Shown one piece after another: positions 11,603 through 30,945 of a stretch of DNA of 64,000 nt. Positions within the stretch are counted from its first letter, which is position 1, and every line of letters begins with the position of its first letter. The position numbers and the translations under genes are program-made. Origin of the DNA: a virus; IMG/VR virus record IMGVR_UViG_3300027833_003138, positions 32,001 to 96,000 of that record; one strand, written 5' to 3'. The notes beneath the pieces were generated by a model that made no database searches, was not told where the DNA came from, and saw only the letters and a program-made list of their open reading frames with translations.

Positions 11603-12406
11603 ATGAAAAGAAAAATTCTTATAATGGGACTTCCTGGATCAGGAAAAACAACATTAGCTGAAAAGCTTGTTGCTAAATTAAATGCCGCATGGTTTAACGC
11701 AGATGCAGTTCGTCAAGATATATATTCTGAACTTGGATTTTCTCCAGAAGATCGATTGTCTCATGCCACACGAATGGGAAAACTTTGTGATTGGGCAAAA
11801 ATAGGAGGTTCATATGTTATCGCAGATTTCGTATGCCCAACTCAAGAAACTAGAGCCGCTTTTGGTGCAGATTTTGTAATATGGGTAGATCGCATAATGG
11901 AGGGTAGGTATGAAGACACAAATAAAATGTTTGAAAGACCTATGAATTATGATTTAAGACTTACCGATGGAACTCCAGAAGAGTGGGTTGATAAAGTTGT
12001 TGAGAAATTAGACGAAACTGAAGCGTGGGATAATCAAGCTCCAACTGCGTTACTTATAGGTAGGTATCAACCATTTCACATCGGGCATAAGAGCCTTGTC
12101 GCTGAAGCCGTAAAAAGAACAGGCCAATGTTGCATTGCATTAAGAGATGTCGGCGGAATTGATGATAGTAACCCCTACGATTTTGAAAAAGTGAAAAAAG
12201 AAATACATTCTGCTTGTGTAGAATTCGGAAACAAAATTAAAGTTGTCGAACTCCCTAATATTATGGATGTATTTTATGGCAGAGGCGTTGGTTATAATAT
12301 CGAACAACTAGAACTAAGTAAAGAATTACAAGAAGTTTCTGCCACCAAAATCAGAGATGGTCAAATTGGTCAAGACGGAAAACCTTTAGGTAAGCGCCCT
12401 GAATAA
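11603..12406 (+). CDS. cysC: adenylylsulfate kinase fused to HxGH nucleotidyltransferase domain
   Basis: P-loop GLPGSGKTT, NADAVR, LGFS.EDR, DFVCP, FE.P; C-terminal GRYQPFHIGH and SATKIR. Confidence 0.85.
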   Translation: MKRKILIMGLPGSGKTTLAEKLVAKLNAAWFNADAVRQDIYSELGFSPEDRLSHATRMGKLCDWAKIGGSYVIADFVCPTQETRAAFGADFVIWVDRIMEGRYEDTNKMFERPMNYDLRLTDGTPEEWVDKVVEKLDETEAWDNQAPTALLIGRYQPFHIGHKSLVAEAVKRTGQCCIALRDVGGIDDSNPYDFEKVKKEIHSACVEFGNKIKVVELPNIMDVFYGRGVGYNIEQLELSKELQEVSATKIRDGQIGQDGKPLGKRPE

Positions 12407-12420
12407 GCCTCATTCATGAT

Positions 12421-12460
12421 AATCTGTGAAAAGATGGGATTTAAATATTTAAGTAATTAA
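12421..12460 (+). repeat. direct repeat copy 2; relic 3' end of the 11219-11581 gene
   Basis: Encodes ICEKMGFKYLSN* versus ICEKMGFKYLTN*. Confidence 0.9.
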
Positions 12461-13227
12461 GGCTCAATAAAGTGATCTGAGTTGATTGTCCTCCAGATAT
12501 AGTTCTCTACCTCGCTATAAATTTTAGAGAAAAATGGCTCGTTTTTTTTATCGAGCATATAAGATGGAGTTGCCCTTGTTTTGAAGACTCCTCGCGAACC
12601 TGCGCAGTGATGATATACGATGCCTCCATATACAGAATACAAAAGCGGATCGACAAACAAGCTCTGCTTTGAATCTCTCTGTATTTTTAACCAATTAATG
12701 CTTTTCTCATTTAAGCGTCCGAACAAGAGACCGCCTATATCGCCCCTCCAATCCACATTAGTATTAAAAGATCTATCTCTGCCCCAACAAAATTGATTAT
12801 CCCTCCAGAATTTAACTTTGCAGAAAGCGAAGGAGGGGTGTGGAGCTAGGCATCCCAAATTCTCAATTCGATTAACTGCGCAAAATTCATAATCCGCGAG
12901 ATTGCATTTAATATAGTTGTTGATATCGCCGATAGGAAACGCATCACTATCGAGAAAGATTAGAACATCATCTTCTTTAACGTTCGGGTCGCAGCACACA
13001 GTATTTGTTAATTGAGCAAGACCCATCTCGTGATCGTCGGACTCGTGGCCCGATTTTGATTTTTTATGACCAAGAAAATGATATTTATGTTCATGTTCTG
13101 ACAGGCATAAATCTTTACTAAAAAGAGCCCAAACTTTGTAGTCGCGAGTAAAGCGTTGAATATGCCTTAATTGAATATCAATCCATTTTATTGTTGCGTG
13201 ATGAATGGTAATATAATGTATTTTCAT
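12457..13227 (-). CDS. putative GT-A glycosyltransferase
   Basis: LIFLDSDAFP DxD motif; island context. Confidence 0.6.
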   Translation of the reverse strand: MKIHYITIHHATIKWIDIQLRHIQRFTRDYKVWALFSKDLCLSEHEHKYHFLGHKKSKSGHESDDHEMGLAQLTNTVCCDPNVKEDDVLIFLDSDAFPIGDINNYIKCNLADYEFCAVNRIENLGCLAPHPSFAFCKVKFWRDNQFCWGRDRSFNTNVDWRGDIGGLLFGRLNEKSINWLKIQRDSKQSLFVDPLLYSVYGGIVYHHCAGSRGVFKTRATPSYMLDKKNEPFFSKIYSEVENYIWRTINSDHFIEP

Positions 13228-13230
13228 GTT

Positions 13231-13836
13231 TTAAAATTGATAATCAAAGTATTCTATGTCTTTATGATATTTTTGAGAAACAATATCAATGGTTTTTTGG
13301 TTGTAATATTCGCTATAGTGCTTGCGGTTTGTTTTGTTTGTGTGGGGTAATTGTTGTCTCCGCTCGCCAACTTCATCACAAACTAAATTAAAGTCTTGCT
13401 GAAGATTTTCGAATCTTATGATGCGATCTATGCAGTTGCGCCCATCTATTTCAACGAATGAATATTGTGTATAAAAGTGATCTGCGCGTCCTGTGGAATC
13501 ATTTAAATGATTAATTTTTTCGTAACCATTGCGAATCAATAAATAATCTTCAAGTGTTGTGTTTTTTAAAAAATTAAAAAACGGTGAGCTTGGTCGAGTC
13601 CACCATTTGTAATCTGAAACTGCTCGATCCCACGGATTTCGAACAATTGCAAATTTATAATAGCTGCGAATATCAATTCCGTAAACTGATTGCATTTGGT
13701 ATATCGAACAATGCTGTTTCCATAAGCTACGTTTTTCGTCCCAACCATAAAAAGAATCGTCAAATAATTTCTCAACGCTTGTTCCTCCTGTTTTTGGAAT
13801 GTGAACGAAAATAATTTTATGTTCGCGATTTATCAT
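13231..13836 (-). CDS. sulfotransferase (Sulfotransfer_2-like)
   Basis: FVHIPKTGGTS PSB loop, VRNPWDRAVS PB motif, DIEYFDY C-terminus. Confidence 0.9.
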   Translation of the reverse strand: MINREHKIIFVHIPKTGGTSVEKLFDDSFYGWDEKRSLWKQHCSIYQMQSVYGIDIRSYYKFAIVRNPWDRAVSDYKWWTRPSSPFFNFLKNTTLEDYLLIRNGYEKINHLNDSTGRADHFYTQYSFVEIDGRNCIDRIIRFENLQQDFNLVCDEVGERRQQLPHTNKTNRKHYSEYYNQKTIDIVSQKYHKDIEYFDYQF

Positions 13837-14491
13837 TGCCAAGGGGGCGCTTATATAAGAAAGATTCACTTCTTTGATTCCATCCATAATGTAAAGCGGA
13901 ATGCGGTATGTCTGCATTGATTTGTATCATATTGTTTATGATGCAATTAATTTCAGAGTCAGAGTCATATAAATTACACAGTGTATCATGAAGAGTTAAA
14001 TACTGCCAATCTTTATCAAATTTGTACCGTTTGATGAATGCATTTTTTAGTTTCACTGACAAGGGATGGCCTGAATAATCAAAACACATAAACCAACTTG
14101 CTGTTTCAGCATAACCTCCCCTTGGGCTCAGTTTACGAGGAAAAAATCGGTATGCAAAAAAACCAGTGTCATTTACTAATTTATAGTAAAAGCTATTCAG
14201 TGGCAACATAGGATAAACACTAGTATCAACCCACACTCCTCCGAATTTTGATAAAAGCAAAACTCTCAACAAGTCTGATTGGGCGGCAAAAGATCGTTTT
14301 GGGGAGTCACGATTGATGGTGAAAAATTCAGGAACAAAATCTTGAATAGATTGATTATCCAAAACATGAATCCTGTAGTCTGGATTAAACTGTCTCCATC
14401 TTGATATGCATTCCATATTCAATTGTGGCACGTCAATATCGTTTTCCCCTTGAAACCAACACATCCATATTGTTTTTCTGGGAATGTTCAT
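13817..14491 (-). CDS. capsular polysaccharide synthesis protein (GT32-like)
   Basis: IWMCWFQG, SDLLR.LL..FGGVWVD motifs. Confidence 0.8.
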   Translation of the reverse strand: MNIPRKTIWMCWFQGENDIDVPQLNMECISRWRQFNPDYRIHVLDNQSIQDFVPEFFTINRDSPKRSFAAQSDLLRVLLLSKFGGVWVDTSVYPMLPLNSFYYKLVNDTGFFAYRFFPRKLSPRGGYAETASWFMCFDYSGHPLSVKLKNAFIKRYKFDKDWQYLTLHDTLCNLYDSDSEINCIINNMIQINADIPHSALHYGWNQRSESFLYKRPLGNDKSRT

Positions 14492-15354
14492 TTTAATAGT
14501 GAGGCAACCTGAGTATTAAAGTATTGTATCAGTTGTCGTTTTCGATTTTCGGTATCTATTGCTGCGACGCTCCAATTGACTGCGTCCATTTGGTCAAAGC
14601 GATAGCATGTGGTCATGCCAGCAAGTGTTGACATTCTTTGTTGGTCGCTTGAATGTTGAGGTGAGTTGACCTCGAAATTAGGATAAAATACAATCACAGG
14701 AATGCCCATCGCTATGCATGGGAGGGCGCAATGCAAGAAAGTTGTAATTACTAGTTTTGCGTTGTCTCTATAATTATCTAAAAGTTTTTCAGCCAATATC
14801 ATGTTGTCATCAAAGTTTGAGGTGTGCGAATAGTGATTAATATATTCACATTGAGAAGCAATATCTTTGGGTAATATGTTGAGTATATCTTTATCTCGTG
14901 ATGCAACAAAGATTTTGTTTTGGCTTGTTGTTGCTCTGCGCTTGGGCAGTGTTGTTGTGAGGCAGTTACTTGTATAGCAATCGATTGCTTGTTGATTAAG
15001 TAGATTGAATGTATGCAGATCACGACAGCCAATTGGTTGATGCATCTTGAAATAATCAACGCTGGTTTGGTTGGTTACATTATCAAATAATCCTTCGCGA
15101 TTTCTTGCATGAAATCCGATAAACAAAGGAATAATGTTATCCGATGGAGGCCAAATTTCTCCGCATCTTTTGTGCCAACCATTCATAACTAAGAAAAATT
15201 TATCAGAACTTACTGGTTGAATACCTGAGTCTCTATCCAAATAAATTTCAGGCTCGAGATCTAATTGTTTAAGCAATCTTAATTGAGCAATGATTTGAAT
15301 ATGATCGCCGAGATTGTTGCTATCAACAGAATAAGATGCAATCTTGATAGCCAT
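14488..15354 (-). CDS. polysaccharide pyruvyltransferase family protein
   Basis: NLGD.IQ, IGCRD, LHCALPCIAMGIPV motifs. Confidence 0.8.
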   Translation of the reverse strand: MAIKIASYSVDSNNLGDHIQIIAQLRLLKQLDLEPEIYLDRDSGIQPVSSDKFFLVMNGWHKRCGEIWPPSDNIIPLFIGFHARNREGLFDNVTNQTSVDYFKMHQPIGCRDLHTFNLLNQQAIDCYTSNCLTTTLPKRRATTSQNKIFVASRDKDILNILPKDIASQCEYINHYSHTSNFDDNMILAEKLLDNYRDNAKLVITTFLHCALPCIAMGIPVIVFYPNFEVNSPQHSSDQQRMSTLAGMTTCYRFDQMDAVNWSVAAIDTENRKRQLIQYFNTQVASLLK

Positions 15355-15359: not shown

Positions 15360-15926
15360 TTATTTATTATTTTTTTTAAACAAATAGTATGGATAGTTTT
15401 CAATTTGTTTTTGTTGTGAGGGATTATACTTTGTGACAAAACCTGTTTCTTGGTGTTTTGTGTTAACCGCTTGATATTTACTTGAAGTTTTAGAATCGGT
15501 AAATAAATATGTGGAATTGTAGATACACAAATAGCCATTCTTTGCAACAAGTTGATCGATGATATCAAGTGTTTCCTCAAATATATTAAATTTATAAGAC
15601 AGATCATCATCAGAGCTCCATCGGCATAATACCGACATGGCAAAAACCAAATCAAATTTACAATTTAAACTTTCAAGACTATCTGTATACTCGATGTTTG
15701 AGTATTGATTGTTTTTAAAATTGTCACGAATGACATCTTTATTGATGTCGAATCCAACTTGCTTGATATCGGGGAAATATTTTTCTTGCAAGCTTTCGCA
15801 TTCAAGCCTATAAGAACAACCGAAAGATAGTATATTTTTGGGATTAGGGATGATTGACTGAATTTCAGAAAAAATATCAGGATATCTGTTTGGTAAAGTA
15901 CGAGTAGAGATTTGATTGGTTTTCAT
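15360..15926 (-). CDS. class I SAM-dependent methyltransferase
   Basis: ILSFGCS, GFDIN, FDLVFAMSVL. Confidence 0.7.
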   Translation of the reverse strand: MKTNQISTRTLPNRYPDIFSEIQSIIPNPKNILSFGCSYRLECESLQEKYFPDIKQVGFDINKDVIRDNFKNNQYSNIEYTDSLESLNCKFDLVFAMSVLCRWSSDDDLSYKFNIFEETLDIIDQLVAKNGYLCIYNSTYLFTDSKTSSKYQAVNTKHQETGFVTKYNPSQQKQIENYPYYLFKKNNK

Positions 15927-15941: not shown

Positions 15942-16445
15942 TTACAAATAAATCACGAATTGCCGCTCTTGCACTTCAACTTTGAGATCGTGTAGAGCAA
16001 CAAATTCATCAACTGCAGGCTGTGGGCCAGGCGTTAATGGGTGAGACCATCCATAATCATCTCCGCATAAAAATCCGCCTTTCTTGACTTGGGGATACCA
16101 ATGTTGCAAATCCTCCAAAACAGAAGCGTAGCTATGATCCGCATCAATATATACCCAGTCAAAATACTCTTTCCCAAAAAACATATCTTTAGAGTTGTTT
16201 TTGTGAATAAAAGCGTTAGATTGATTTTTAAATTTATCTTTTACATGCTTGTATGCATCAATTATTTTTTGACCTTTTGCCCATTTAACCCATTCATGAT
16301 CCTGATGTATCCATGGATCAATTAAATGCAATTCCTTTGGGTTGCATTCGAGTATTTGCGAGGAAAAATCTCCTCTCCATACGCCAATTTCTGCGCATAT
16401 ATCGTTAGTTTTAATTTTTTTGATTGGTAGTAGTCGCGGTCTCAT
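15942..16445 (-). CDS. class I SAM-dependent methyltransferase (Methyltransf_24-like)
   Basis: AEIGVWRG, YIDADHSY, GG.LCGDDY. Confidence 0.85.
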   Translation of the reverse strand: MRPRLLPIKKIKTNDICAEIGVWRGDFSSQILECNPKELHLIDPWIHQDHEWVKWAKGQKIIDAYKHVKDKFKNQSNAFIHKNNSKDMFFGKEYFDWVYIDADHSYASVLEDLQHWYPQVKKGGFLCGDDYGWSHPLTPGPQPAVDEFVALHDLKVEVQERQFVIYL

Positions 16446-16467
16446 TATAATAATATTATTGTTAGGG

Positions 16468-17247
16468 TTATCGTTTATTACACCAATTTTTATATTCAAT
16501 TAGTTCATTGCTTGCGATCATTCTATAATCAAAAAGCTCAAAGTCTTGTTTGCATTTTCTATTAATAACTTCTAGGTCACCAACTTCGTAATGATGTAAA
16601 TATTTATAAACCAAGCCGTCTCCAAAGAAAGAATCGCAACTTTGGTCTAGTGGTTTCGTGTTGATATTTTTGGATAGAGTTGGAATCTCATTATAAGGTA
16701 AGCCAATCATCTCGCAAACTTTTTTAAAATCTTCCTCAAATCTTTCGTTTTTCCCTATAAAATTCATTTTTAATGAATTATCTTGATGCGTCCAGCGTTT
16801 GAAAAATCCGCCAGACCTTATCTGATGAAGTGGGTTAAGGAGTTTTAGGTAGTTTCGAAATAAAAAATTACCATTTCCGTCCGTACATTGTTTTAACTTC
16901 TCAAGTTTTCGCTTGTCAATCCTCCAAGCTGCATCATGCTTGCCGTTTTCTTCTTGGTGTTTAATGTATGTTGGCGAGGCATCAAATTGACTGCGAGAAT
17001 AAAAATAATCGTATGGATTGCGTATGAAACAAAATTTAAAATAATCTTTGCATTCCTCATATATTGGTAGCTGCTGTAAATCATCTATCCAGATATGTCG
17101 AGAGATTGCTTTATTTAGCGTGTTATTAAACATAGGTTTTTCAAGTTCTAGGTAATTATTGAACTGCCCAAGTCTTGCGTGCAAAGTTGAAGTTCCTGTC
17201 TTAGGCACTTCAAAAAAAATAAAACGGTAATCGTGCGAAATAATCAT
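16468..17247 (-). CDS. sulfotransferase (Sulfotransfer_2-like)
   Basis: FFEVPKTGTST, IRNPYD, DFELFDY. Confidence 0.85.
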   Translation of the reverse strand: MIISHDYRFIFFEVPKTGTSTLHARLGQFNNYLELEKPMFNNTLNKAISRHIWIDDLQQLPIYEECKDYFKFCFIRNPYDYFYSRSQFDASPTYIKHQEENGKHDAAWRIDKRKLEKLKQCTDGNGNFLFRNYLKLLNPLHQIRSGGFFKRWTHQDNSLKMNFIGKNERFEEDFKKVCEMIGLPYNEIPTLSKNINTKPLDQSCDSFFGDGLVYKYLHHYEVGDLEVINRKCKQDFELFDYRMIASNELIEYKNWCNKR

Positions 17248-17837
17248 TGTTGTTGGAATTTATAGTTAAAGTATTCAATGTCCTTCTTGTATGCTGATTC
17301 GATAATTTTCATGTCGTACTCGTTATAATACTCCCCGTAATGTTCTCGATGTTGGTGAGCTTCTTTTTTAAATGGGCCATTATAGGTCGACAATGAAGGA
17401 GGGCAAATATTAAGGTTTTCGCACAACTGATTAAAGTCTGAATTTAAATTTTCAAACCTAAGAACATAATCTAACTCTATTGATTTATTAATAGCCAAGA
17501 AGTCATATTGACTGCCTAGACCTCCCCACATGTTAAATTTTTTTTCAACAAAAGCGAAACTCAGCCAATCGGAAAAGTTTTTTTGCTTGATGGTTTTATT
17601 AAACTGAGTGAAATATATATACATAGATACTACTCTATCCCAAGGATTTCGAACTACAGAAAATTTATAATATTTATTCCAGTATTTAGAATAATTTTGC
17701 TTACATTGGCTGGCGTTCCAGTGTTTTTCTTTCGTTTCGTTTTTGAGTACAGAATCGTCTGCAAGGCTCACGGAAATAGATGTGCCTGCCGTTTTGGGAG
17801 TGTGAATAAAGATGAATTTATGTTTGTGATTTATCAT
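17244..17837 (-). CDS. sulfotransferase (Sulfotransfer_2-like)
   Basis: FIHTPKTAGTS, VRNPWDRVVS, DIEYFNY. Confidence 0.9.
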   Translation of the reverse strand: MINHKHKFIFIHTPKTAGTSISVSLADDSVLKNETKEKHWNASQCKQNYSKYWNKYYKFSVVRNPWDRVVSMYIYFTQFNKTIKQKNFSDWLSFAFVEKKFNMWGGLGSQYDFLAINKSIELDYVLRFENLNSDFNQLCENLNICPPSLSTYNGPFKKEAHQHREHYGEYYNEYDMKIIESAYKKDIEYFNYKFQQQ

Positions 17838-17849: not shown

Positions 17850-18491
17850 TTAACAATGTTTATGCCAAGAGTTCATTGTGAATGGAGGGTTAAGGTAATT
17901 ATAATGATTTTTAACCGCGTTATTCACAAATACCAAATCGCATTGAGCTAAGACATTGTGTTTGTAACAAAGATCAACAATATGGCATAATGAAAAATTT
18001 GATTCATGTAGAATATTACTAATCTGGTTAAACGCTGGCATTTTCGCCTCAATAATAACGAATGCACATTTGGCTAAACTATTTTTCGCCCCATTTAAAA
18101 TATCAACTTCTAGTCCGTCAACATCAATTTTAAGTAAAGCTGAATCTTGGATATTCTCCTCTGCAAACACAGTATCTAGAGATTTTACGCGAACCGAAAT
18201 TTCAGATTTCTCAGAATTTAAGTCGCTTCCCCCAGTTTTTCGATGAAGATACAACTTGGAATCAAATTCAGCACATCCAATATCTAGTAATTTATATTGT
18301 AGTTTGCTATAGTTTTTATGAATCGATTCAAAATATTGGGGGTCAGGCTCTATTAATATATGCTTAGCTTCGCTGAACACTCTCAATTCTTTTGTTTGAT
18401 ATTGACATCCAGCATCTATTATAGTCGAAAACGGAAAGCTGTATTGACATAAAAAATCACAAAAAAATTGTTTTGTAGGTTTAGGTTTCAT
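17850..18491 (-). CDS. FkbM-family methyltransferase
   Basis: IIDAG, IEP, SLD, LLKIDVDGLE..IL.GA. Confidence 0.85.
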   Translation of the reverse strand: MKPKPTKQFFCDFLCQYSFPFSTIIDAGCQYQTKELRVFSEAKHILIEPDPQYFESIHKNYSKLQYKLLDIGCAEFDSKLYLHRKTGGSDLNSEKSEISVRVKSLDTVFAEENIQDSALLKIDVDGLEVDILNGAKNSLAKCAFVIIEAKMPAFNQISNILHESNFSLCHIVDLCYKHNVLAQCDLVFVNNAVKNHYNYLNPPFTMNSWHKHC

Positions 18492-18502: not shown

Positions 18503-19387
18503 TTATAGGTTATTTAAAAAATTTATAAAATATTCAACGCTAAGTTCTTTTTTGGTTGATCGTATGGCTAGATAATCTGAAACTTCCTGTATGAAAGCTC
18601 TATCTGTTAATCGTTTGTCGATGTTGTCTGGCAGATCATCTAAATACATAGGATAGTCTTCCCCTAGATACTCTACAATGGGCGGAATTTTATTAACTAA
18701 AACGGGCGTGTGCGTCATTATATGTTCAAGAATAGAGGTGCTGGCAGAGCAATCATCGTAAAAAGCATAACCTATTGTGCAGGTTAGAAGCTCTATATAA
18801 TCATCTGGCTCAAGAAAACCATTTCGAAAAATAATAGAATCATTATCTGAAAGGCTCTTTTTGTACTTTTTTTCCCTTGCTGTCCTATCACAAGTAATTA
18901 ACTTGGTTAAGTTAGAATTAAAATTAATAAAGTGATTAATATTCCTTCCGAAAAACCCACTATGCCTCAAGGTTGGAGCTGTGAAATAGAGATCAATTTC
19001 AAAACGATGACCTGTGTCGGGCTTTGGGTGCAAAAGTGTTTTAATGGGAATTGACGTTTTCGTCTGACAGTGTTGCCTTGTGTGTTCGCTGGTCGTTAAC
19101 AAAAAAAGACAATTATCTTTGGTTTTCCTATAAATAGCAGAGGAGAAAAAACGGTTTAAGTTTTGCTCTCTAGACTCGCTAGCGATGCCATGTAAAATTC
19201 CAACCCATTTATTTCTTTTCAATAAATCAAGTTGATATTCATTGTGGTATCCATCTGCCCATGCATCTAGAATCGGTTCGCCTTCGACTAATTTAGCTTG
19301 CCGCTTAAACTTTTCGATAATAAATCCCCACCCATAAAAATGGTCTTTTATAATACTCGCGGGGCATCTAATGTGAGAGAAATTCAT
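18503..19387 (-). CDS. putative GT-B-like glycosyltransferase
   Basis: SASTSILE...TPVLVN..P..VEYLG resembles a GT-B C-terminal donor-binding region; weak. Confidence 0.45.
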   Translation of the reverse strand: MNFSHIRCPASIIKDHFYGWGFIIEKFKRQAKLVEGEPILDAWADGYHNEYQLDLLKRNKWVGILHGIASESREQNLNRFFSSAIYRKTKDNCLFLLTTSEHTRQHCQTKTSIPIKTLLHPKPDTGHRFEIDLYFTAPTLRHSGFFGRNINHFINFNSNLTKLITCDRTAREKKYKKSLSDNDSIIFRNGFLEPDDYIELLTCTIGYAFYDDCSASTSILEHIMTHTPVLVNKIPPIVEYLGEDYPMYLDDLPDNIDKRLTDRAFIQEVSDYLAIRSTKKELSVEYFINFLNNL

Positions 19388-22749: not shown

Positions 22750-23390
22750 ATCCAACTGCCTCCCCAATGGTGTACAGCGTGCGCTTCTGGACAAGTTTTA
22801 GAAAAATCTTCTGATTTGCGATGAACTTCGTACCACAAGTAAGGATAAACAGTTTTTTTCGGAGAGTCTCTTCCGTCCGGCCTCCCCTTTTTTGAGCCCA
22901 GTATTTCAGTGATATATACAGGACCATATTTACAATCCGAAATTTTGTTTCCGTGAGATTTTTCTCGAGACGGCAGACTGTCTATGAGGCGCTTGAGGTC
23001 TAAATTTTTCTTGGTGGCCCCAAAAAATGCTCCGCATATTTTTTGCGGTTGCTGCCAATATAATACAATTTTCTCATCTTTCAATAAAGCGTCTATAGGC
23101 TTTAAGCATTCAAAGTCAGTATCGACATATAATCCTCCATACTGATATAGAATTTCAAATCTTAAAATATCTGACTTTTCCGAATAATTTTTGCAGTTTT
23201 TGAGTATTTTAGGATAGGTTATACTTAAATCTTGTTCGATTTTTAAGTCATCCCACATTATGTGTTCCCATTCGGGGTTTAATTTTTTCCAACTATCTTG
23301 CCACTCTTTTTCTTGGTTGGATAGCTCACTGCCACCTATATGAATTTGGTGTATGATTTTTGGAATGCTATCTTTTTGATCTAGCTTCAT
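22746..23390 (-). CDS. GT32 glycosyltransferase (Och1/DXD sugar-binding)
   Basis: IPKIIHQ, SDILR.EILY.YGGLYVDTD, HHW..SW. Confidence 0.85.
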   Translation of the reverse strand: MKLDQKDSIPKIIHQIHIGGSELSNQEKEWQDSWKKLNPEWEHIMWDDLKIEQDLSITYPKILKNCKNYSEKSDILRFEILYQYGGLYVDTDFECLKPIDALLKDEKIVLYWQQPQKICGAFFGATKKNLDLKRLIDSLPSREKSHGNKISDCKYGPVYITEILGSKKGRPDGRDSPKKTVYPYLWYEVHRKSEDFSKTCPEAHAVHHWGGSWI

Positions 23391-24036
23391 GTATTTGACG
23401 CATGGTATTTGAATTTACATAATGAGTTGTAATTTTGTCATGATTCATGATAGCGTTCATGCATACCGATTGATCTGATCTCGCGCTATCTGGGCTTGGT
23501 GTTGATAATAAATCCGTAACAGTTAAGTCGATTTTTTGATCGCGTAAGGCAAGCCCTATGGAGTAATCCTCCGCAGATTTGTTTTTGAATTCATTTTTGT
23601 AAAAATGTTTTAATGATTGCAGGCATTTCTCAACAGCTTTTCGCGTTAGAATGTATCCCGCACCCCCCTGAGCATATGGAAATGGGTTAACTATTTTGCC
23701 ACCTATATACCAATCAGCGCTTGCGTCGTAGTCTTTTAGAAATTGCATAAGTTTATCAAAATTTATATAAGTGTCATCGTCACACTTGAATAAAAAGTCC
23801 CACTCGTGTTTCAATGACTCCACAAGCATTTTGTAAGTTTTTTCAGGCAAACGAAATCGCGCTTCTCCTTCGTCAGGCGAACAATTCCACGTTTTATCCA
23901 TTTTTTGAGATTGCTGTTGATCTCCGTAAAAAAAATACTCATGTGGAGCTTTTATATTATTTACCCATGTATCTAAGCAAGCATTAGCTTGTTCTTGTGT
24001 GCCACTGTGAGTTAAAATTGTTGTTAATATTTTCAT
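23368..24036 (-). CDS. GT31 (Fringe/galactosyltransferase-like) glycosyltransferase
   Basis: FKCDDDTY, YAQGGAGY.L, ED...G. Confidence 0.8.
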   Translation of the reverse strand: MKILTTILTHSGTQEQANACLDTWVNNIKAPHEYFFYGDQQQSQKMDKTWNCSPDEGEARFRLPEKTYKMLVESLKHEWDFLFKCDDDTYINFDKLMQFLKDYDASADWYIGGKIVNPFPYAQGGAGYILTRKAVEKCLQSLKHFYKNEFKNKSAEDYSIGLALRDQKIDLTVTDLLSTPSPDSARSDQSVCMNAIMNHDKITTHYVNSNTMRQIHEARSKR

Positions 24037-24767
24037 TTTCTGTTTAAAATTTCTTTTACCACTTCGATCCTTACTTGATCGAGCGATGCGGATTCATATT
24101 TTTGTGGGTATTTTTTCATTATTCGATCAATATTGTGGTGAGAAACATGATATGCTCTGATGGGGTCGCGAATATCTGGAAAGTAGGGAGAGACATCTTC
24201 CTTTCTTTTTCGAGTCAAAGTTAATGAGTGTTGTTTTGCAAGCGACCGAAAGTTAGTATTGCTTTCTGTGAAATTATAAATAAAAAATTCTTGATCATGG
24301 TAGTGGTTTGCTTGTTTTTTAATTTCATCAAGCCTTAATAGGGTAATGTCGTAAAACAATTCGCATAATTTTTTAAATTCAGATGGCGTTCCAGAGGCCA
24401 TGCAAGGGCACGCGTCATCGAAAAAATGAATTCCTCCTACGAGGGGGTCGTTGATGGTCCATCTACCACTATTAATTACGTCGTAATCAGAGACAAGAAA
24501 TCTTTCGCTTTTATTATCTAAGGCAGAATATGCAAGCCATCTTACAAAACAACTCAATCCATATGGGGTTAAATCGTTCCCAGTAATTTCTTTAAAAATA
24601 AACCTCATTTTGCCAACAAATAAATCGTATTCTGGAGATTTTTTTGCATCGTTAATGTTAAGGGTAATAGGTTCAAAGCCCATTTCCTGCCAACTCAGGG
24701 CCCAAAGTTCGAGTAGCTCTTTTTGTTGTGGAAAATTAATTTCTTCGTAATATGTATAAATCTTCAT
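24033..24767 (-). CDS. putative GT-A glycosyltransferase
   Basis: RWLAY...SDYDV DxD motif, HDQ. Confidence 0.5.
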   Translation of the reverse strand: MKIYTYYEEINFPQQKELLELWALSWQEMGFEPITLNINDAKKSPEYDLFVGKMRFIFKEITGNDLTPYGLSCFVRWLAYSALDNKSERFLVSDYDVINSGRWTINDPLVGGIHFFDDACPCMASGTPSEFKKLCELFYDITLLRLDEIKKQANHYHDQEFFIYNFTESNTNFRSLAKQHSLTLTRKRKEDVSPYFPDIRDPIRAYHVSHHNIDRIMKKYPQKYESASLDQVRIEVVKEILNRK

Positions 24768-26668
24768 TGTGTAAGGCGGTTGTATAGTTTTTTGTCCCAT
24801 CGAGTTCTATCGAGAAATTTTTGTTGCAGCCTGGGGGGGAGCTGATTAAATTGAAGCGTGTTAATTTTACTTGATTTATTTCTATTTAAATAACTTTTCG
24901 GAGCTTTTGAAAAAGATAAATTATATGATTTAGAGAAAATCTCTTCTATAAGGTAATCAACTTGAGTAATATCTTTTATGTAGAATTCTTTCAGTTTTTC
25001 GATAGCGATATTGTAATGACCTTCATCTATTGGATCGCTCCACTTTAGGCATAAAACTTGCCTAATCAACCAACTGTCCTCCAGTTCTTCGCTTTCTATG
25101 TATTGCTCGAATGTGGGTGAAGCGATTTCATCTCGAACGGGTTCGTGGTCGCTATCACTGGATGTTAAATAATAAAATAGGGAGTTCGCCCTAGAAAAAG
25201 GTTCGCGTAAAGTCAAAAAATTAATTGGTTTACGGTTGTACCTCTCACAAATTTCATTAATAAATTCTAGGTTATCTTCCCAACCGATAAGTTCACTTTT
25301 AACAAAAGAACTGCCACTGTTTTGAGGCTCTATGAGTACAGCAAAAATAAAAGTTTTATTATTTTGAATGAAGGAGAGGAATTCTTCTGGAGAAAATTCT
25401 GATGACTTTTTAATTTTAAGGGGAATTGTTTCCTCGTGTAATACTTGATAGTCTTTATAAGTTTTTGCTTGTGGAAATTTTTTATGTAATGCTGTTACTG
25501 CATTTTCTCTAAGTTTTTGAGCATACTCTAGGTTTGTCCAATTTGAATTGTTTGGATATGCGCCACCAATATCAAGTTTGTGATAAGGAGTTGATGCAAT
25601 CTTTGCATGATAATGCAATGCGAAATAATCATGTAATCCCGGACCTCCAAGGAAAACAGTACATTTATTGCCGCTGGGAAAATTAATTGAAGCTTGAATT
25701 TTACCACACTCTTCTTGTGGGCTTTTTGATTTTAAATGTTGATCCAGTAAAAAACTTGTTGCACTTAATACATATGTTCCAGCATTTTTAGCTATATGGT
25801 AATATACTGGAAGCAGTGTTTGTGCTTCATTTAAGCTTCGTTTTTTGTGAAGAATAATTGTTTCTGGGTATTGCTCTATTACACTATCAATTGGAGTGCC
25901 TGCATCTATGGGCAATGAAAAATTAGCGATTATAGAAGAATCTATTAGGTTCTTATGCAAGCTTGACTGGCTGTGGCAATTCTTTCTTCCAAATGAGCCG
26001 CAATAAAGGAAGTGCATTGCTACATCAAAACTAATGAAGTTATTAATATTGTTTTTTATATTGTATTCTATTAATTTTTTAGACTCTTCAATAAATAGCT
26101 TTAGAAATGGAATGTTTCTGTAAATTGCGATGCCGTTTAAGTGCCCTGTCCATGACTCATAAAGGGGAAGTTTTTCTTTACCTTTGTATGTACTTCCAGC
26201 AATTAAAAATACATTGTTGTCGCAATAATTTACTATTTTGTCTAGCCAGTAATTTTTGATTGGTTGAGAGTCTGTTTCTAGCATTAAGATATCTCTATAG
26301 TTTAATTTTAAAATATTCTCAAAAGATCGATAAAATAAATTGTTTGGCCCTGTTGACCCGCCAAGTTTAAACCTCTCGGAGGATTCAACTTTAGAGAAAT
26401 CTTCAGGTGTTCGTACGTAAAAATCTTCAGATTCTGTCAAGTTTAGCACGAAAACGAAAACATTATTTACATTTTCTAATTTTTTGTATTCTAAGAGTGG
26501 TTTGTATTTATTTATATATCCCTTGTTGAGGTAAATATATATATCAAATTTTTTATCAACAGAAACTTGTTTAAGGAAGTATCTCGAAATACAATCGTCT
26601 AATACTCCAGAGTTATACTCTTTTTCCGTGGATAGAAACAATATACATAACTTGTTTGAAAATTTCAT
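24764..26668 (-). CDS. fusion of GT-like domain and sulfotransferase domain
   Basis: N-terminal LMLETD (ExD), HLNG; C-terminal YYHIAKNAGT, LREPFSR..S, D..LY. Confidence 0.7.
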   Translation of the reverse strand: MKFSNKLCILFLSTEKEYNSGVLDDCISRYFLKQVSVDKKFDIYIYLNKGYINKYKPLLEYKKLENVNNVFVFVLNLTESEDFYVRTPEDFSKVESSERFKLGGSTGPNNLFYRSFENILKLNYRDILMLETDSQPIKNYWLDKIVNYCDNNVFLIAGSTYKGKEKLPLYESWTGHLNGIAIYRNIPFLKLFIEESKKLIEYNIKNNINNFISFDVAMHFLYCGSFGRKNCHSQSSLHKNLIDSSIIANFSLPIDAGTPIDSVIEQYPETIILHKKRSLNEAQTLLPVYYHIAKNAGTYVLSATSFLLDQHLKSKSPQEECGKIQASINFPSGNKCTVFLGGPGLHDYFALHYHAKIASTPYHKLDIGGAYPNNSNWTNLEYAQKLRENAVTALHKKFPQAKTYKDYQVLHEETIPLKIKKSSEFSPEEFLSFIQNNKTFIFAVLIEPQNSGSSFVKSELIGWEDNLEFINEICERYNRKPINFLTLREPFSRANSLFYYLTSSDSDHEPVRDEIASPTFEQYIESEELEDSWLIRQVLCLKWSDPIDEGHYNIAIEKLKEFYIKDITQVDYLIEEIFSKSYNLSFSKAPKSYLNRNKSSKINTLQFNQLPPRLQQKFLDRTRWDKKLYNRLTQ

Positions 26669-26669: not shown

Positions 26670-27383
26670 TTATGATAAATATTTATATAATTTCGATTGT
26701 TCTTCTCTCTTTATTAAAGAAATACACTTATCGACTTTCTTGGGTAATTGTTTTCTGAAATTTTTAAATTGAATTTCTGCTTTTTCTTGATCGTAGTTTG
26801 TGCCTCTTGGGTGAATGATTTTATGGTTTTTATCTCTCAGGACTAATTTTTTATTTAAAAAACTAATTGAAGCTAAAGCTAAATCAATACCCCATCCGTA
26901 ATCTTCATTACGAAGATTAATATTGTAATCTTTAAATTGGTTTATAATATCTTTATGTATGAACCAAACCGTTTCGTCTGTACATCCAACTATGTCTAAG
27001 TTTTGATGCCGTAATAAATTGCGCTTATCTTCTATCCTGAAACTTTCTGTTGTATACCAAGTATAGTCTATATTCGGAGAGTAAATTCCGCAATCATAGT
27101 GCTTGAAATAATAAATTGCATCGCTAACTAATTCTTCCCAGCGATCATAGGATACATCTCCTTGTATGTGGAATAAAATATCTCCAGAAAAGTTTTTAAG
27201 GGCAGTATTGAATTGCCCGGAAAAGTAAAATTCATCGCCAATATTAATCCAGTTTTCTGGGCAATAATGATCGTCGCTATTTATGACTTTAACTTTATCA
27301 AAAATAGAATTTAATTGAAAGAATATTTTTTTAGAGTTTTCTGATTTTCCTTTCCAGTTAAATATGAATGGCTCAATTACCAT
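26670..27383 (-). CDS. putative GT-A glycosyltransferase
   Basis: HIQGDV, GWGID motifs. Confidence 0.5.
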   Translation of the reverse strand: MVIEPFIFNWKGKSENSKKIFFQLNSIFDKVKVINSDDHYCPENWINIGDEFYFSGQFNTALKNFSGDILFHIQGDVSYDRWEELVSDAIYYFKHYDCGIYSPNIDYTWYTTESFRIEDKRNLLRHQNLDIVGCTDETVWFIHKDIINQFKDYNINLRNEDYGWGIDLALASISFLNKKLVLRDKNHKIIHPRGTNYDQEKAEIQFKNFRKQLPKKVDKCISLIKREEQSKLYKYLS

Positions 27384-27409: not shown

Positions 27410-27479
27410 ATCGATCTTCATAACTATACCCAAATGCGTTGATGTCTACTGCGTATTTTTCTTCTATTTTCTCAACTAT
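27408..27479 (-). pseudogene. orphan sulfotransferase C-terminus
   Basis: Reads IVEKIEEKYAVDINAFGYSYEDR*, the family's Y..DI..FGY end, out of frame behind the intact gene. Confidence 0.7.
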
Positions 27480-28101
27480 CATAGCTATAACCTAGGTAAT
27501 CTATGTCTTTTTTATAAGATTTAGACACAATATCTATTGATTGATTATTGTATACTGTTCTGTAATCAGTTTTATTAGAGATATTTAAATGAGGTAATTC
27601 GATTTTCTGGATACCTATCCTACTGCATATATTGTCAAAGCTATCTTGCAACGTTTCCATTTTGCCTACAAAGTTAATATTGTCAGTGATCCACCTGGTC
27701 TGAAGCTCTGCAAAATTTGGATTGATGCTTGCAAATTCATTAAAATCTTCAAAGTTCCCAACTAAATCCTTATATGCTTCGTAAGCAGTGATCCATTTTT
27801 GTTTTTTTTCTGGATTTTCATCCCAGAATTTAATCATTTTTTTATAATATTTAAATATGCTTAAATGTCTATCCCACGGATTCCTTGAAAAGGAAAAAGA
27901 AAAATAATCATCCAAATTTTGACTACAATTATTCTTTATATCTTCTAATGTGATATGTTTAAGTATTGGGTTTTCCCTGCCTTCAGCTTTATCTGAAAGA
28001 TTAACCTTTTCATGAAGCGGTTGAAGTTTTGATTCTATTGAAGTCGTGCCCGTTTTCGGCGTGGCAATAAAAATAAATTTATGTTTGTGGGATATAATCA
28101 T
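27472..28101 (-). CDS. sulfotransferase (Sulfotransfer_2-like)
   Basis: FIATPKTGTTS, RNPWDRHLS, DIDYLGY. Confidence 0.9.
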   Translation of the reverse strand: MIISHKHKFIFIATPKTGTTSIESKLQPLHEKVNLSDKAEGRENPILKHITLEDIKNNCSQNLDDYFSFSFSRNPWDRHLSIFKYYKKMIKFWDENPEKKQKWITAYEAYKDLVGNFEDFNEFASINPNFAELQTRWITDNINFVGKMETLQDSFDNICSRIGIQKIELPHLNISNKTDYRTVYNNQSIDIVSKSYKKDIDYLGYSYDS

Positions 28102-28102
28102 A

Positions 28103-28207
28103 TTAAATTTCTCCCTCTAATAGCAAAATAGAATTTAATTGAAAGAATATTTTTTTAGAGTTTTCTGATTTTCCTTTCCAGTTAAATATGAATGGCTCAA
28201 TCATCAT
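28103..28207 (-). pseudogene. chimeric relic ORF
   Basis: MMIEPFIFNWKGKSENSKKIFFQLNSI (5' end of 26670-27383) joined to LLLEGEI* (like the LLLEGQL end of 29027-30715). Confidence 0.8.
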
Positions 28208-28233
28208 TTCTCTTGGCGGCTTCTTCCTGCTTT
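28125..28233. repeat. 109-bp direct repeat copy B
   Basis: 824 bp from copy A. Confidence 0.95.
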
Positions 28234-28268
28234 TGGGGGCAATGAAATATAATATATATTATCAATTT

Positions 28269-29030
28269 TCATAATTTATAATGATTGTAATGAAAGCCTT
28301 TGCTGGTTGTTACGCTAAATAGGCATTCGTCAAATCCATCGTGATGGTTCCAGTTTTTAAATGGCCACAAACCTTCTTTTTCGTTTTCGCGAACTAAATC
28401 TTTTATTGCTTGTAGTCTCGTAACGTTTTTGCCCCACTTTGTTTCTAGGGGTTGGTTTGAATCTGGCATACTTAAAACTTTCTCTCTACATCTTCGGGGT
28501 TGAGCTTTTTGGGGAATTTTTAAACTGTCAAATTCGATGTCGCATGCTAAATCTTGCAAAGATTTACTTTTGGGCAAAACAAAATACTCGTCTACATCTA
28601 TAAATGCAAAGAAATCGCTTTGCGATTTAGTCAAAAAATCTCTCAAGGCGGAGTATTGTGAGTCTGGATACTTGTCTTTATGATCTTTTGCGTATTCCCA
28701 AGGAATTATATTTACATTGTTATATTTATCTTGCACCCTGCTGATTGCCTTTATAATCTGAGACTCAGAAAAATCTTCGAAATGGTCTATTTTCGGTTTT
28801 AAGTCCCAAATTTTGGAGATTTCTCCTTGGCATTTTTCGTTTTTAAAAGTTTTTTGCGCCCACCACGAAGTTTGATTACTTGCAGATTTTTCATTGCTTA
28901 TCAAATTAAAACCGTTGTTATATATGTAGATTTTATTTATGCCTATTGATAAATTGTGTTCTATCCATTCTTCAAGATGCCAAAACTCTAGTCTTGGGGC
29001 GATTAAGGTTATGATATCAATTGTATTCAT
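28269..29030 (-). CDS. GT2/GT92-like glycosyltransferase
   Basis: LEEWIEH...G...IYIYNN and AFIDVDEY. Confidence 0.75.
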   Translation of the reverse strand: MNTIDIITLIAPRLEFWHLEEWIEHNLSIGINKIYIYNNGFNLISNEKSASNQTSWWAQKTFKNEKCQGEISKIWDLKPKIDHFEDFSESQIIKAISRVQDKYNNVNIIPWEYAKDHKDKYPDSQYSALRDFLTKSQSDFFAFIDVDEYFVLPKSKSLQDLACDIEFDSLKIPQKAQPRRCREKVLSMPDSNQPLETKWGKNVTRLQAIKDLVRENEKEGLWPFKNWNHHDGFDECLFSVTTSKGFHYNHYKL

Positions 29031-30715
29031 AATTGCCCTTCTAGTAGCAAAAACGAAATAATAGAAATTATTTTTAATTTTAAATCCAATTCAGATTGGG
29101 TTTTTGGTTCAGTAAATAAGCAGTTCATGTTGTCTTTTAAAATTTCTTCAACACCTTTTGCGTCTTTCATCCACAAATCTCCTGTCAATGCGTTAGATAC
29201 GGCTTGCCAAGCTACTCGCTTTACGAACCATGATTGATTCAACCTGCTAGGGTCAACAATATGACTTACCGTGCAATCTGGAGTATAAAGTGCAGAGTAT
29301 TTTTTTCTAATTTGCGTAACTGCCTGATCTTCTTCTCCACTAAGAAGCGTACTCGTTCCACCTTTGCGACCTAAGTGAGTACCAAATCCTCCAATTTCTT
29401 TAAGAGCCTGCAGTCTAAAACAAATATTCGCCCCTACTAGCCAAATAGGTTTATCATATTCATGCAAGAATACATCTCTATCTGAAAAATCGGCCATAGA
29501 AAGTTGCCCTAACTGATCATCACTCAACCATTCTGGTCTTTCTGCGATTTGCCAATCTGGAATAATTTTCCCCCCAACTACACCTATTGATGGGTTTTTG
29601 AATTTATTAACCATGTTTCGAATTAAATTCGAATCTACGATTGTATCGTCATCTACGAAATAGATTAAATCAGATTTTGATTCTTCTATACATGCATTTC
29701 TTGCGCCAGAGAGCCCGTCTGTTAATGTATGTATATATCTACAGTTGCTGATTGTTTTCGCAAGGCTGTACGCTTTATCGTATTCTTTTTTGCATTTAGC
29801 TATGTCTTCCACAGGCGTATTGTCTAATACTATAATCTCATATTCATCCATCAAGGCTGACTGATTTGACGCAGACTCTAGACACTTACGCAATAATTTA
29901 TGATTGTTGTATGTACAAATACATAAGCTTGTGGTTAAATTTTTATTCCAATACTCAAATGAAGGAGAATTGATTTCTTGGATAAGAGACTTGTATTCCA
30001 TATCATAATATGGCTTGTCTTTTTGAGTGTGTATGTTAGATTCTTTTTCTGCAGAATAACACAAATCTATACAAGGAAAAAAAGCGAAATCGAGACAAGT
30101 CTCCGCAGCATGCATGACGAACCTGTCTGCCGGCGCAGTGATGCTATTTTTCTTACCCCAATCGTATCTAGGGTTTTCTTCTTTGATCCTTAATAAGTGC
30201 TCTGATGGCTCTTTTATGAAATCAAAAGGAGAACAATGCCTAAATTTAAAACTATCCTGCACACAAGAGACTAATTTAACTGCTCCTTGATTTTTTAAAA
30301 TATACGCTTCAAGCCCGTCCCATCCTCTTGCCCCTAAGTGGATTAAATCTAATGATTCATCTATATCTGGATTCGTCATCAAATAATTTACTAAATCACT
30401 AATGACTATATCATCTTCGACGATAAGCGCACAATCTAAATCTTCATCGATAATCTTTTTCCAAGCGGAGTAGTGGCTTAAAAAGCATCCCGCTGCTCCC
30501 GCGCTCTGAGAAAAATATAATTTATAAAAAATACCAACAGGGTCTATCTTTAGTCCAAAATCATCGACAACGCTTAAATCTTTGCGAGTGTCAATTGCAT
30601 CTATTCTTTCTAGGCAATTTTTCATTTCATCTGGCAGAAGGGAAAATAAATTTTGAGCCTTTAACCAAGGCTGTGGATTATCTTCTAGATTTATAAAAAA
30701 TACTTTGAATTTCAT
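29027..30715 (-). CDS. GT25 + GT2 fusion glycosyltransferase
   Basis: FFINL, GCFLSH..AW, LIVEDD (GT25); ICTYN, GLSGARN, FVDDD, GANI, GEE (GT2). Confidence 0.85.
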   Translation of the reverse strand: MKFKVFFINLEDNPQPWLKAQNLFSLLPDEMKNCLERIDAIDTRKDLSVVDDFGLKIDPVGIFYKLYFSQSAGAAGCFLSHYSAWKKIIDEDLDCALIVEDDIVISDLVNYLMTNPDIDESLDLIHLGARGWDGLEAYILKNQGAVKLVSCVQDSFKFRHCSPFDFIKEPSEHLLRIKEENPRYDWGKKNSITAPADRFVMHAAETCLDFAFFPCIDLCYSAEKESNIHTQKDKPYYDMEYKSLIQEINSPSFEYWNKNLTTSLCICTYNNHKLLRKCLESASNQSALMDEYEIIVLDNTPVEDIAKCKKEYDKAYSLAKTISNCRYIHTLTDGLSGARNACIEESKSDLIYFVDDDTIVDSNLIRNMVNKFKNPSIGVVGGKIIPDWQIAERPEWLSDDQLGQLSMADFSDRDVFLHEYDKPIWLVGANICFRLQALKEIGGFGTHLGRKGGTSTLLSGEEDQAVTQIRKKYSALYTPDCTVSHIVDPSRLNQSWFVKRVAWQAVSNALTGDLWMKDAKGVEEILKDNMNCLFTEPKTQSELDLKLKIISIISFLLLEGQL

Positions 30716-30945
30716 TGATTTTTAATTACACAAGCTTTATGCCTTTGTTTATCATATTCTTTAAGATATTCTGGCCAAAAAAAATAATAAGCTTCTCCGT
30801 CATCATTCTCTATTGCGGTTTTTAATTCGTGCTCGTAAACCTTTAACCAATTTCGTTTTTGAGGGTCGAATTCTGTTTCACTAATTTGAGGTTTGTGTTT
30901 ACTAACACAGCCTGTTAATATCAACAAAAAGCAAAAAAACCTCAC
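30712..30945 (-). CDS. putative small lipoprotein
   Basis: LTGC lipobox; GTG start 9 nt after GTGTA. Confidence 0.6.
   Translation of the reverse strand: MRFFCFLLILTGCVSKHKPQISETEFDPQKRNWLKVYEHELKTAIENDDGEAYYFFWPEYLKEYDKQRHKACVIKNQ

Follow-up and report, generated by a model that had tools for sequence, protein, structure and literature searches.

The 64,000-nucleotide stretch analysed here (the window) comprises bases 32001-96000 of the 140,314-bp linear IMG/VR virus record IMGVR_UViG_3300027833_003138, a fragment (CheckV completeness 79%) of an uncultured marine, myovirus-like tailed phage. It carries a 19-kb block of minus-strand genes, here called island I, whose predicted products fit a pathway, encoded by the phage and working in the cytoplasm, that makes a sulfated, methylated and pyruvylated glycan. 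Judged from its genes, the island very probably builds a sulfated, tailored glycan. Comparison with relatives indicates that island I (12407-29036 plus conserved borders) is a hypervariable, putatively glycan-tailoring cassette that is exchanged between near-identical genomes.

Twenty-three minus-strand open reading frames (ORFs) occupy window positions 12457-30715, in agreement with an earlier note made from the same sequence. Most overlap or lie less than 20 nt apart, the sole gaps being 88 and 167 nt, and all reading frames are intact and tightly coupled. The inventory comprises six intact Sulfotransfer_2 domains and one degenerate one, at least seven glycosyltransferase (GT) domains, three methyltransferases, one pyruvyltransferase and a DUF1796 protein. 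No transmembrane segment or membrane-spanning hydrophobic stretch was found in any island enzyme, as the earlier note had judged, and the G+C content of the island is that of the neighbouring phage genes. The predicted products of the island and of the convergent kinase gene beside it, where APS is adenosine 5'-phosphosulfate, NMNAT is nicotinamide mononucleotide adenylyltransferase and SAM is S-adenosylmethionine, are as follows.

11603..12406, plus strand: 267-aa fusion of an APS-kinase fold (residues 1-141) and a NadM-type NMNAT-like domain (~145-255), by Pfam, motifs and fold; convergent with the island
12457..13227, minus strand: unclassified 256-aa protein, last island gene; no Pfam/NCBIfam match and no hhalign link
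13231..13836, minus strand: sulfotransferase 1 (Sulfotransfer_2), true start MINREHK, by Pfam and motifs
13817..14491, minus strand: GT32-type glycosyltransferase (Caps_synth / Gly_transf_sug, DXD), Pfam 2.5e-30
14488..15354, minus strand: polysaccharide pyruvyl transferase (PS_pyruv_trans, 3.5e-13)
15360..15926, minus strand: SAM methyltransferase (Methyltransf_23), by Pfam
15942..16499, minus strand: SAM O-methyltransferase (Methyltransf_24 / TylF-like), by Pfam; GTGTA at 16479-16483
16468..17247, minus strand: sulfotransferase 2, the most divergent of the six, by Pfam, motifs and tree
17244..17837, minus strand: sulfotransferase 3, by Pfam and motifs
17850..18491, minus strand: FkbM-type methyltransferase, Pfam 4.2e-16
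18503..19387, minus strand: compact GT-B fold glycosyltransferase (GT4-like), no Pfam family, by structure model and Foldseek
19391..20041, minus strand: unclassified 216-aa protein; no Pfam/NCBIfam/hhalign match
20050..20685, minus strand: sulfotransferase 4, by Pfam and motifs; GTGTA at 20699-20703, 15 nt 5' of the ATG
20721..21500, minus strand: unclassified 259-aa protein, no family match; its homologue in relative L056 is 61% identical
21446..22141, minus strand: DUF1796 'papain-like' protein, borderline (Pfam 23.1 bits, cut-off 23)
22144..22746, minus strand: sulfotransferase 5, by Pfam and motifs
22746..23390, minus strand: GT32-type glycosyltransferase (Gly_transf_sug, TcdA/TcdB-like DXD), by Pfam
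23368..24036, minus strand: Fringe-like / GT31 glycosyltransferase, Pfam 1e-17
24033..24800, minus strand: unclassified 255-aa protein; no Pfam/NCBIfam/hhalign match
24764..26668, minus strand: 634-aa two-part protein whose C-terminal part (~430-634) is a divergent sulfotransferase-like domain, by motifs, family profile and Atlas
26670..27383, minus strand: unclassified 237-aa protein; no Pfam/NCBIfam/hhalign match
27472..28101, minus strand: sulfotransferase 6, by Pfam and motifs
28269..29030, minus strand: GT-A glycosyltransferase (Glyco_tranf_2_4 / GT92-like), by Pfam
29027..30715, minus strand: 562-aa GT25 + GT2 two-domain glycosyltransferase, by Pfam; GTGTA at 30727-30731; conserved right border of the variable cassette
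30712..30945, minus strand: conserved 77-aa small ORF at the island head, kept in relatives; GTGTA at 30955-30959

Six island proteins pass the Sulfotransfer_2 (PF03567) gathering threshold with 49.7-75 bits (cut-off 22), and the PKxGxxS and RNPxDRxxS motifs are intact in all six. They are predicted to be intact sulfotransferases of the type that uses 3'-phosphoadenosine 5'-phosphosulfate (PAPS), with activity on glycans. The earlier note had counted seven domains with both the 5'-phosphosulfate-binding (PSB) and the 3'-phosphate-binding (PB) motif; this stands for six, and the seventh, at the C-terminus of the 634-aa protein, is degenerate. It keeps the 3'-PB motif (FLTLREPFSRANS) and has Gln for the PSB Lys; it falls below the PF03567 threshold in Pfam and scores marginally with a family hidden Markov model built here. 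Its nearest Atlas cluster is viral, with Sulfotransfer_2 in 39% of the members. The 634-aa protein corresponds to two separate genes in relatives, and a search of viral contigs with its peptide patterns gave no match. A further canonical paralog, the seventh canonical copy in the genome, lies outside the window in a second island.

A quick maximum-likelihood tree of 126 sequences decided the choice between monophyletic expansion and separate captures against monophyly: the seven paralogs do not group together, well-supported branches force at least three sulfotransferase lineages in this phage, and other phages carry closer kin of each paralog. This is the pattern of a shared cassette pool rather than of a recent tandem expansion, as far as such a tree can tell. 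The best bacterial homologue is only 43% identical, and bacterial homologues are widespread in marine bacteria. The family comprises 1,609 metagenomic clusters at E <= 1e-5 (~200 aa each), and relatives are encoded in at least 482 IMG/VR stretches; among 76 IMG/VR loci, 58 hold two or more sulfotransferases and two hold eight. Two contigs from metagenome-assembled genomes (MAGs), L101 and L102, labelled Halobacteriovorax and Thermodesulfobacteriota, each carry several sulfotransferases, one of which (in L102) is almost identical to one from the phage relative L020 (tree branches 0.12-0.18); both are probably phage contigs binned into bacterial MAGs.

Pfam assigned all of the other enzyme families that had been read from the sequence, namely GT2, GT25, GT31, two GT32, a GT92-like protein, three methyltransferases and the pyruvyltransferase. 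The count of about ten glycosyltransferases held up in part, with six domains placed by Pfam and one GT-B by fold. The model of the 18503-19387 protein (pLDDT 88.6, pTM 0.88) found SenB as its top Foldseek hit (1.4e-9), with SdgB, GtfA, MshA and WaaG also matched, and this protein is modelled as a probable compact GT-B glycosyltransferase. It belongs to a family that is not in Pfam, with an Atlas cluster of 310 that includes phage and giant-virus members. Six island proteins are unclassified: they have no Pfam/NCBIfam match even at E <= 10, and hhalign connected none of them with an annotated transferase of the phage at a probability >= 50. No close bacterial relative of the island pyruvyl transferase was found. 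Papain-like proteins, the kind matched by the DUF1796 protein at 21446-22141, are also listed in the glycogene clusters of giant viruses of the Megavirinae (PMC10117803).

Comparison with the nearest relative, IMGVR_UViG_3300046464_000709, defines the borders of the cassette. Flank proteins are 65-99% identical between the two phages and the kinase 98.9%, and the DNA identity of the flanks (84-87%) reaches precisely to the stop codon of the kinase (12406) and sets in again at 29037, in the 3' end of the GT25-GT2 gene. Between these points the present phage has 16.6 kb and 22 genes versus 4.2 kb in the relative, which encodes three sulfotransferases at most 43% identical to the present ones. 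With flanks this similar and the interior replaced, the island is a hypervariable cassette and not a captured capsule locus. Further versions of the cassette occur in other relatives, in some cases on the opposite strand or adjoining tail fibres or genes of island II; in the relatives L021, L023 and L028, tail-fibre-like genes lie immediately beside the kinase. The order of kinase, variable cassette, GT25-GT2 gene and dUTPase side recurs in independent IMG/VR contigs from other samples. The view that this is no ordinary captured capsule locus, already taken in the earlier note, is thus borne out by flanks of conserved phage genes and by the distance of the bacterial sulfotransferases.

The fusion protein at the left border may supply the sulfate donor. 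Its N-terminal domain scores 45.1 bits against Pfam APS_kinase (PF01583, cut-off 21.1), and the motifs GLPGSGKTT, ..ADAVR.., LGFSPEDR and DFVCP align with the APS-binding core of APS kinases. A structure model of the fusion built on 26 homologues (pLDDT 84) gave top Foldseek hits for the kinase that are nearly all APS kinases or APS-kinase domains (E ~5e-9). VIA-align matched the kinase to M. tuberculosis CysC with Z 18.5 (rmsd 1.7 A over 126 residues, 30% identity), compared with Z 15.9 for gluconate kinase and Z 10.2 for nicotinamide riboside kinase. The P-loop, the ..D..R...GFSPEDR.. and F-x-x-P motifs and the fold are common to CysC/PAPS synthase and the phage domain, which, unlike PAPS synthase, is fused to an NMNAT-like domain instead of ATP sulfurylase. 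Within the 141-aa domain some canonical motifs are altered (LDGD to FNAD, FISP to FVCP) and the C-terminal lid sequence is unrecognisable. In the partner domain, GRYQPFHIGH and VSATKIR (GRFQPxHxGH and ISxTxxR of NadM) are invariant across the 26 homologues; its profile finds no ATP sulfurylase at E <= 10 and stays below the NadM equivalog level (NF003786, 31.9 bits vs cut-off 397).

The distribution of the kinase links it to sulfotransferases. A set of 50,697 phage records gave 18 with a kinase hit, 5 with a sulfotransferase hit and 4 with both, where ~0.002 with both would be expected by chance. The kinase is present in 153 IMG/VR stretches, of which 80 loci were read within +/-10 kb; in many of these, including lineages whose kinase is only 43% identical, sulfotransferases lie no more than 10 kb from it. 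Sulfotransfer_2 is the commonest Pfam family among 150 kinase neighbours in relatives, followed by sugar epimerases/dehydratases, inorganic pyrophosphatase and inosine monophosphate dehydrogenase (IMPDH)/GMP reductase, and of 22 related contigs that reach 100 kb, at least 14 carry a sulfotransferase. In several relatives (L020-L058), genes for inorganic pyrophosphatase, IMPDH/GMP reductase and DUF1501 (sulfatase superfamily) recur no more than 5 kb from the kinase. On the same strand and 22 nt 5' of the kinase lies a gene for a 160-aa protein with an N-terminal hydrophobic segment (window 11099-11581, plus strand), which is kept in relatives (57-78%) and has no family.

Four observations weigh against PAPS supply by this protein. 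The kinase does not reach the TIGR00455 equivalog level (39 vs 138.7 bits, residues 5-85 matched); the partner domain is NMNAT-like, its profile matching NMNATs (2qjt, E = 1.6e-8), NadR and phosphopantetheine adenylyltransferase; Pfam finds no ATP sulfurylase (PF01747) in the 140-kb record; and the Sanovirus phages encode the same fusion, adjoining a NADAR protein, with no sulfotransferase found in the 50 of 56 kb of phage Sano that were read. The 'APS kinase fusion' of the earlier note is right as to the kinase fold, and, since the partner domain is NMNAT-like and not a sulfurylase, PAPS supply by the kinase domain is moderately likely but only half explained. A role in NAD salvage was also considered, and is weakened by a kinase whose resemblance to APS kinase far exceeds that to riboside kinase and by the lack of nicotinate phosphoribosyltransferase/NadV and NUDIX families in Pfam scans of the record.

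The pentamer GTGTA, which occurs 45+44 times in the 140 kb, ties the island to the virion genes. It is the most enriched 5-mer (8-fold) in positions -40 to -1 of gene starts, with TTGACA-related words next, and its distance from the ATG has a mode of 14-15 nt; 12 genes have it at 14-17 nt, against ~0.2 expected from its genome-wide frequency. It stands upstream of 10 genes of the virion module, among them three tail-fibre genes, the tape measure, the J-like fibre and the sheath, and of five island genes (the kinase, the GT25-GT2 gene, the small head ORF and two internal genes), as well as at the head of a third island described below. All five island sites that had been reported (11588, 30955, 30727, 20699 and 16479) were recovered, as was their match to the tail genes. 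Further sites at window 40873-40877, 45986-45990 and 52880-52884 have a fixed distance of 14-15 nt to the ATGs of virion genes. The control elements around the island are these.

11588..11592, plus strand: GTGTA motif, 15 nt before the kinase ATG
31375..31398, minus strand: strong hairpin resembling a terminator (10 bp, 6 GC, T-run), downstream of the early-type promoter and ahead of the first island gene
31734..31762, minus strand: sigma-70 promoter with a perfect match to the consensus (TTGACA-17-TATAAT), outside the island on its upstream side

The genome has 22 strong sigma-70-like promoters, versus 7 in shuffled sequence, and these are clustered within the early region. Island I and the tail module contain no site of 11/12 or better, which agrees with the earlier finding of no sigma-70 promoter in the island; two perfect 12/12 sites flank the island, at window 11171 and 31762 (both minus strand). 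The hairpin may insulate the island head from the adjacent early-type promoter. Because tail-fibre, tape-measure, J-like and sheath genes all carry GTGTA, the island would probably be transcribed together with the virion genes, and it is from this shared motif only that we infer late timing. The fixed distance to the ATG would fit a -10-like element of leaderless or near-leaderless late mRNAs. Two points tell against that use of the motif: it is also present ahead of two genes that belong to neither the virion nor the island modules, and with a spacing of 14 nt to the ATG it might serve translation instead of acting as a promoter. A Shine-Dalgarno-like core is present in only 15% of the genes.

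Glycan chemistry extends beyond the window and takes up more than 35 kb of the record over three islands. Island II, on the minus strand at genome 109.5-124 kb (109511-123994, locus L011), encodes GT9, GT1, WavE, GT2 and GT47/exostosin-like enzymes, a methyltransferase, the canonical sulfotransferase mentioned above, and a beta-phosphoglucomutase (bPGM)-like HAD domain fused to a nucleoside diphosphate (NDP)-sugar pyrophosphorylase. The statement that sugar-nucleotide genes are missing is accordingly correct for the window and fails for the record. Island III (genome 132507-137732, locus L012) follows directly after the sheath gene and holds two DUF2827, two GT34 and one GT32.

In the mechanism that we propose, the glycosyltransferases would use nucleotide sugars, some of them perhaps supplied by the bPGM-like/pyrophosphorylase fusion of island II, to assemble a cytoplasmic oligosaccharide. 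The chain would then be O-methylated, pyruvylated and sulfated at several distinct positions, with PAPS made by the APS-kinase-fold domain of the neighbouring fusion from host APS; a speculative alternative is that the NMNAT-like partner domain itself makes the APS. The most likely acceptor would be virion proteins, which would thereby gain a strain-variable, negatively charged glycan coat. The shared upstream motif, the position of island III inside the tail module, the cassette-type variability and the precedents in Megavirinae and mycobacteriophages support this acceptor. Against it stand the lack of collagen-like repeats and of Ser/Thr-rich acceptor tracts in the virion proteins, and an ordered excess of SG/TG over GS/GT that is confined to four of them: 44 v 10 (40888-43998), 19 v 5 (44029-45990), 21 v 8 (L012:3053-4678) and 26 v 9 (L012:4678-5868), the first two being paralogs with 50% identity over 450 aa. 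The capsid module, moreover, is missing from the 79%-complete record. Soluble transferases are the rule in bacterial O-antigen and capsule pathways, so the missing membrane anchors neither point to the virion nor exclude lipid-linked host intermediates. We give the virion an even chance of being the acceptor, and the explanation as a whole, a hypervariable cassette that builds a sulfated glycan late in infection on virion proteins, is in our estimate equally balanced between right and wrong. A bolder version seems doubtful to us: virions would bear a strain-variable, heavily sulfated (glycosaminoglycan-like), methylated and pyruvylated glycocalyx from swappable cassettes, fed by a new kind of minimal PAPS synthase in which an NMNAT-like domain replaces ATP sulfurylase beside a 141-residue APS kinase, and such virions would be those of a widespread group of uncultured marine phages.

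The chief rival is that the soluble phage transferases act on undecaprenyl-linked O-antigen, capsule or extracellular polysaccharide (EPS) intermediates of the host, whose own priming enzyme, flippase or ABC exporter brings the product to the cell surface, and that the altered, sulfated surface glycan blocks superinfection or the adsorption of progeny to debris. Enzymes without anchors suit a lipid-linked acceptor, sulfotransferase homologues abound in marine bacteria, and the abutment of kinase and fibre-like genes in three relatives recalls the host recognition cluster of marine myophages, whose GT-rich hypervariable islands have been explained in favour of O-chain modification (Zaragoza-Solas et al. 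2020, PMC7029224). Sigma-70-like promoters near island II might also allow its early expression. The earlier note had listed priming transferases and Wzx/Wzy/ABC export as absent; for the priming (Bac_transf) and Wzx (Polysacc_synt) families this extends to the whole 140-kb record, and WecA, Wzy and ABC exporters were not searched individually, so envelope remodelling would depend on compatible host machinery. The upstream motif common to island and virion genes and the insulation from the early-type promoter suit virion decoration better than exclusion of other phages, and island III lies within the tail module. On balance we regard remodelling of the host envelope as possible though somewhat unlikely. 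A product attached to neither virion nor envelope, such as a sulfated glycoconjugate in free or lipid-bound form (a small molecule, a glycolipid or a compound of the storage/osmolyte kind) or cytoplasmic host proteins modified during takeover, would agree with the cytoplasmic location of all enzymes, the six unclassified proteins, the lack of an acceptor signature in virion proteins and the GT32/TcdA-like folds, which include protein-modifying toxins. It is nevertheless unlikely, as surface-exposed structures that undergo diversifying selection typically show such cassette-like hypervariability between near-identical phages, so many sulfotransferases and glycosyltransferases suggest that the product is a polymer or complex oligosaccharide, and the closest viral analogues decorate virions.

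Glycans could instead be built on hydroxymethylated bases of the phage DNA; such systems are reportedly found in T4 and among the TET/GT systems of Pyle et al. The phage encodes a deoxynucleoside monophosphate (dNMP) kinase and a dUTPase, a sulfotransferase sits amid replication genes in DLP6, and cytosine methylases lie near the kinase in three relatives. To our knowledge, described DNA glycans are short. In kind and number, GT25, GT31, GT32, GT92-like and pyruvyl transferases fit polysaccharide or protein glycans, and Pfam matched no thymidylate-synthase-family hydroxymethylase and no TET/JBP in the 140-kb, 79%-complete record. Phage glycosyltransferases can hypermodify DNA with glycans (bioRxiv 10.1101/2023.12.21.572611), and DNA as the acceptor is in the present case very improbable. 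An assembly chimera, or a host capsule locus that was captured recently and does nothing for the phage, is more improbable still: the record is indeed a linear, incomplete metagenomic fragment, but the same arrangement recurs in independent contigs, base composition matches the neighbouring phage genes, all frames are intact and tightly coupled, and neither the sulfotransferases nor the pyruvyl transferase have close bacterial relatives.

The closest analogues of island I are the fibril glycosylation clusters of Megavirinae, such as Moumouvirus australiensis ma457-ma468, those of Cotonvirus, and Mimivirus L136-L143 (Notaro et al. 2022, PMC10117803). These clusters have 6-33 genes for cytoplasmic glycosyltransferases, methyltransferases, a pyruvyltransferase, sulfate adenylyltransferase (SAT)/APS kinase, a sulfotransferase and papain-like proteins; their content is clade-specific and differs between close clades, and the glycans of Mimivirus, carried on virion fibrils, are methylated and pyruvylated (PMC10117803). 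Island I shares clustered viral glycosyltransferases, tailoring enzymes, sulfate activation and variation between close relatives. Megavirinae, however, are giant viruses that infect eukaryotes, whereas the present virus is a tailed phage, and in place of one canonical 620-640-aa SAT/APS kinase and one sulfotransferase it has the 267-aa fusion and six to seven sulfotransferases. Sulfation is in both cases deduced from genes and not from glycan chemistry.

The host recognition cluster (HRC) of pelagimyophages and cyanomyophages is likewise large, hypervariable, rich in glycosyltransferases and lipopolysaccharide (LPS)-type genes and associated with fibres, its function too being deduced (PMC7029224, in which sulfotransferases are mentioned 0 times). 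It lies between VrlC and gp14 of T4-like phages and holds the fibres, whereas the tail genes of the present phage do not appear to be T4-like and island I is bounded by the kinase and GT25-GT2 genes, with fibres 7.8 kb away (abutting the kinase in some relatives). We know of no mycobacteriophage glycosylation system with more than a few transferases, or with sulfation, pyruvylation or donor-supply genes. In the mycobacteriophages Che8, Corndog and Myrna, capsid and tail-tube proteins are reportedly glycosylated in the cytoplasm by phage-encoded enzymes (Freeman et al. 2023, cited in PMC12619734); the soluble glycosyltransferases sit in or beside the structural operon, like island III here, and the acceptor is a C-terminal extension, of which no equivalent was found in the present phage. 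Bacterial loci for sulfated polysaccharide or LPS (capsule, O-antigen, cyanobacterial sulfated EPS) use the same cytoplasmic families (Sulfotransfer_2, GT2, GT25, GT32, pyruvyl and methyl transferases) and PAPS, but come with a priming phosphoglycosyl transferase and Wzx/Wzy or ABC export. We place island I among virus-encoded glycosylation clusters, where it is unusual in belonging to a tailed phage, in its many sulfotransferases, in its exchangeable cassette and in its atypical kinase fusion.

The tailed-phage assignment rests on a 2,322-aa tape measure, a minor tail protein, a lambda-J-like central fibre, a tail sheath, rIIB and a clamp loader. No close relative of the tail genes was found among cultured phage records: the sheath matches phiKZ-like phages over one third of its length only, the fibres resemble those of cyanophages and pelagiphages at ~28%, and megablast of the island DNA against the 50,697 phage records gave no match. 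The 'Moraphages' (PMC12619734) were weighed as a lineage, and no link to the present record was found. Elsewhere in the genome are a one-piece tmRNA of generic type (window 36119-36510, minus strand; Rfam RF00023, 140 bits; ARAGORN-read tag GKNKNRVVAFSPKAEQLALAA), tandem tRNA-Ser(GCT) and tRNA-Thr(TGT) genes (window 9669-9842, minus strand), a tRNA-Met gene (L008:13077-13153) and a UvdE UV-damage endonuclease (window 7069-8088, minus strand, 4e-31) with no close relative among 185,579 species genomes.

Virus-built glycans are already established for giant viruses and a few mycobacteriophages, but the same does not hold for sulfation carried out by phages. A 2023 paper called the role of phage sulfotransferases unclear (PMC10580990), and our literature search brought up no published account of a phage that drives the sulfation of glycans. 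IMG/VR has many related islands with several sulfotransferases, up to 8 per locus, and the kinase fusion may represent a new way of making PAPS. Should the product be attached to virions, the particles of marine phages would be wrapped in a polyanionic coat of variable make-up, which, if true, would matter for adsorption, decay, grazing and the stickiness of particles, and for the flux of sulfur and carbon.

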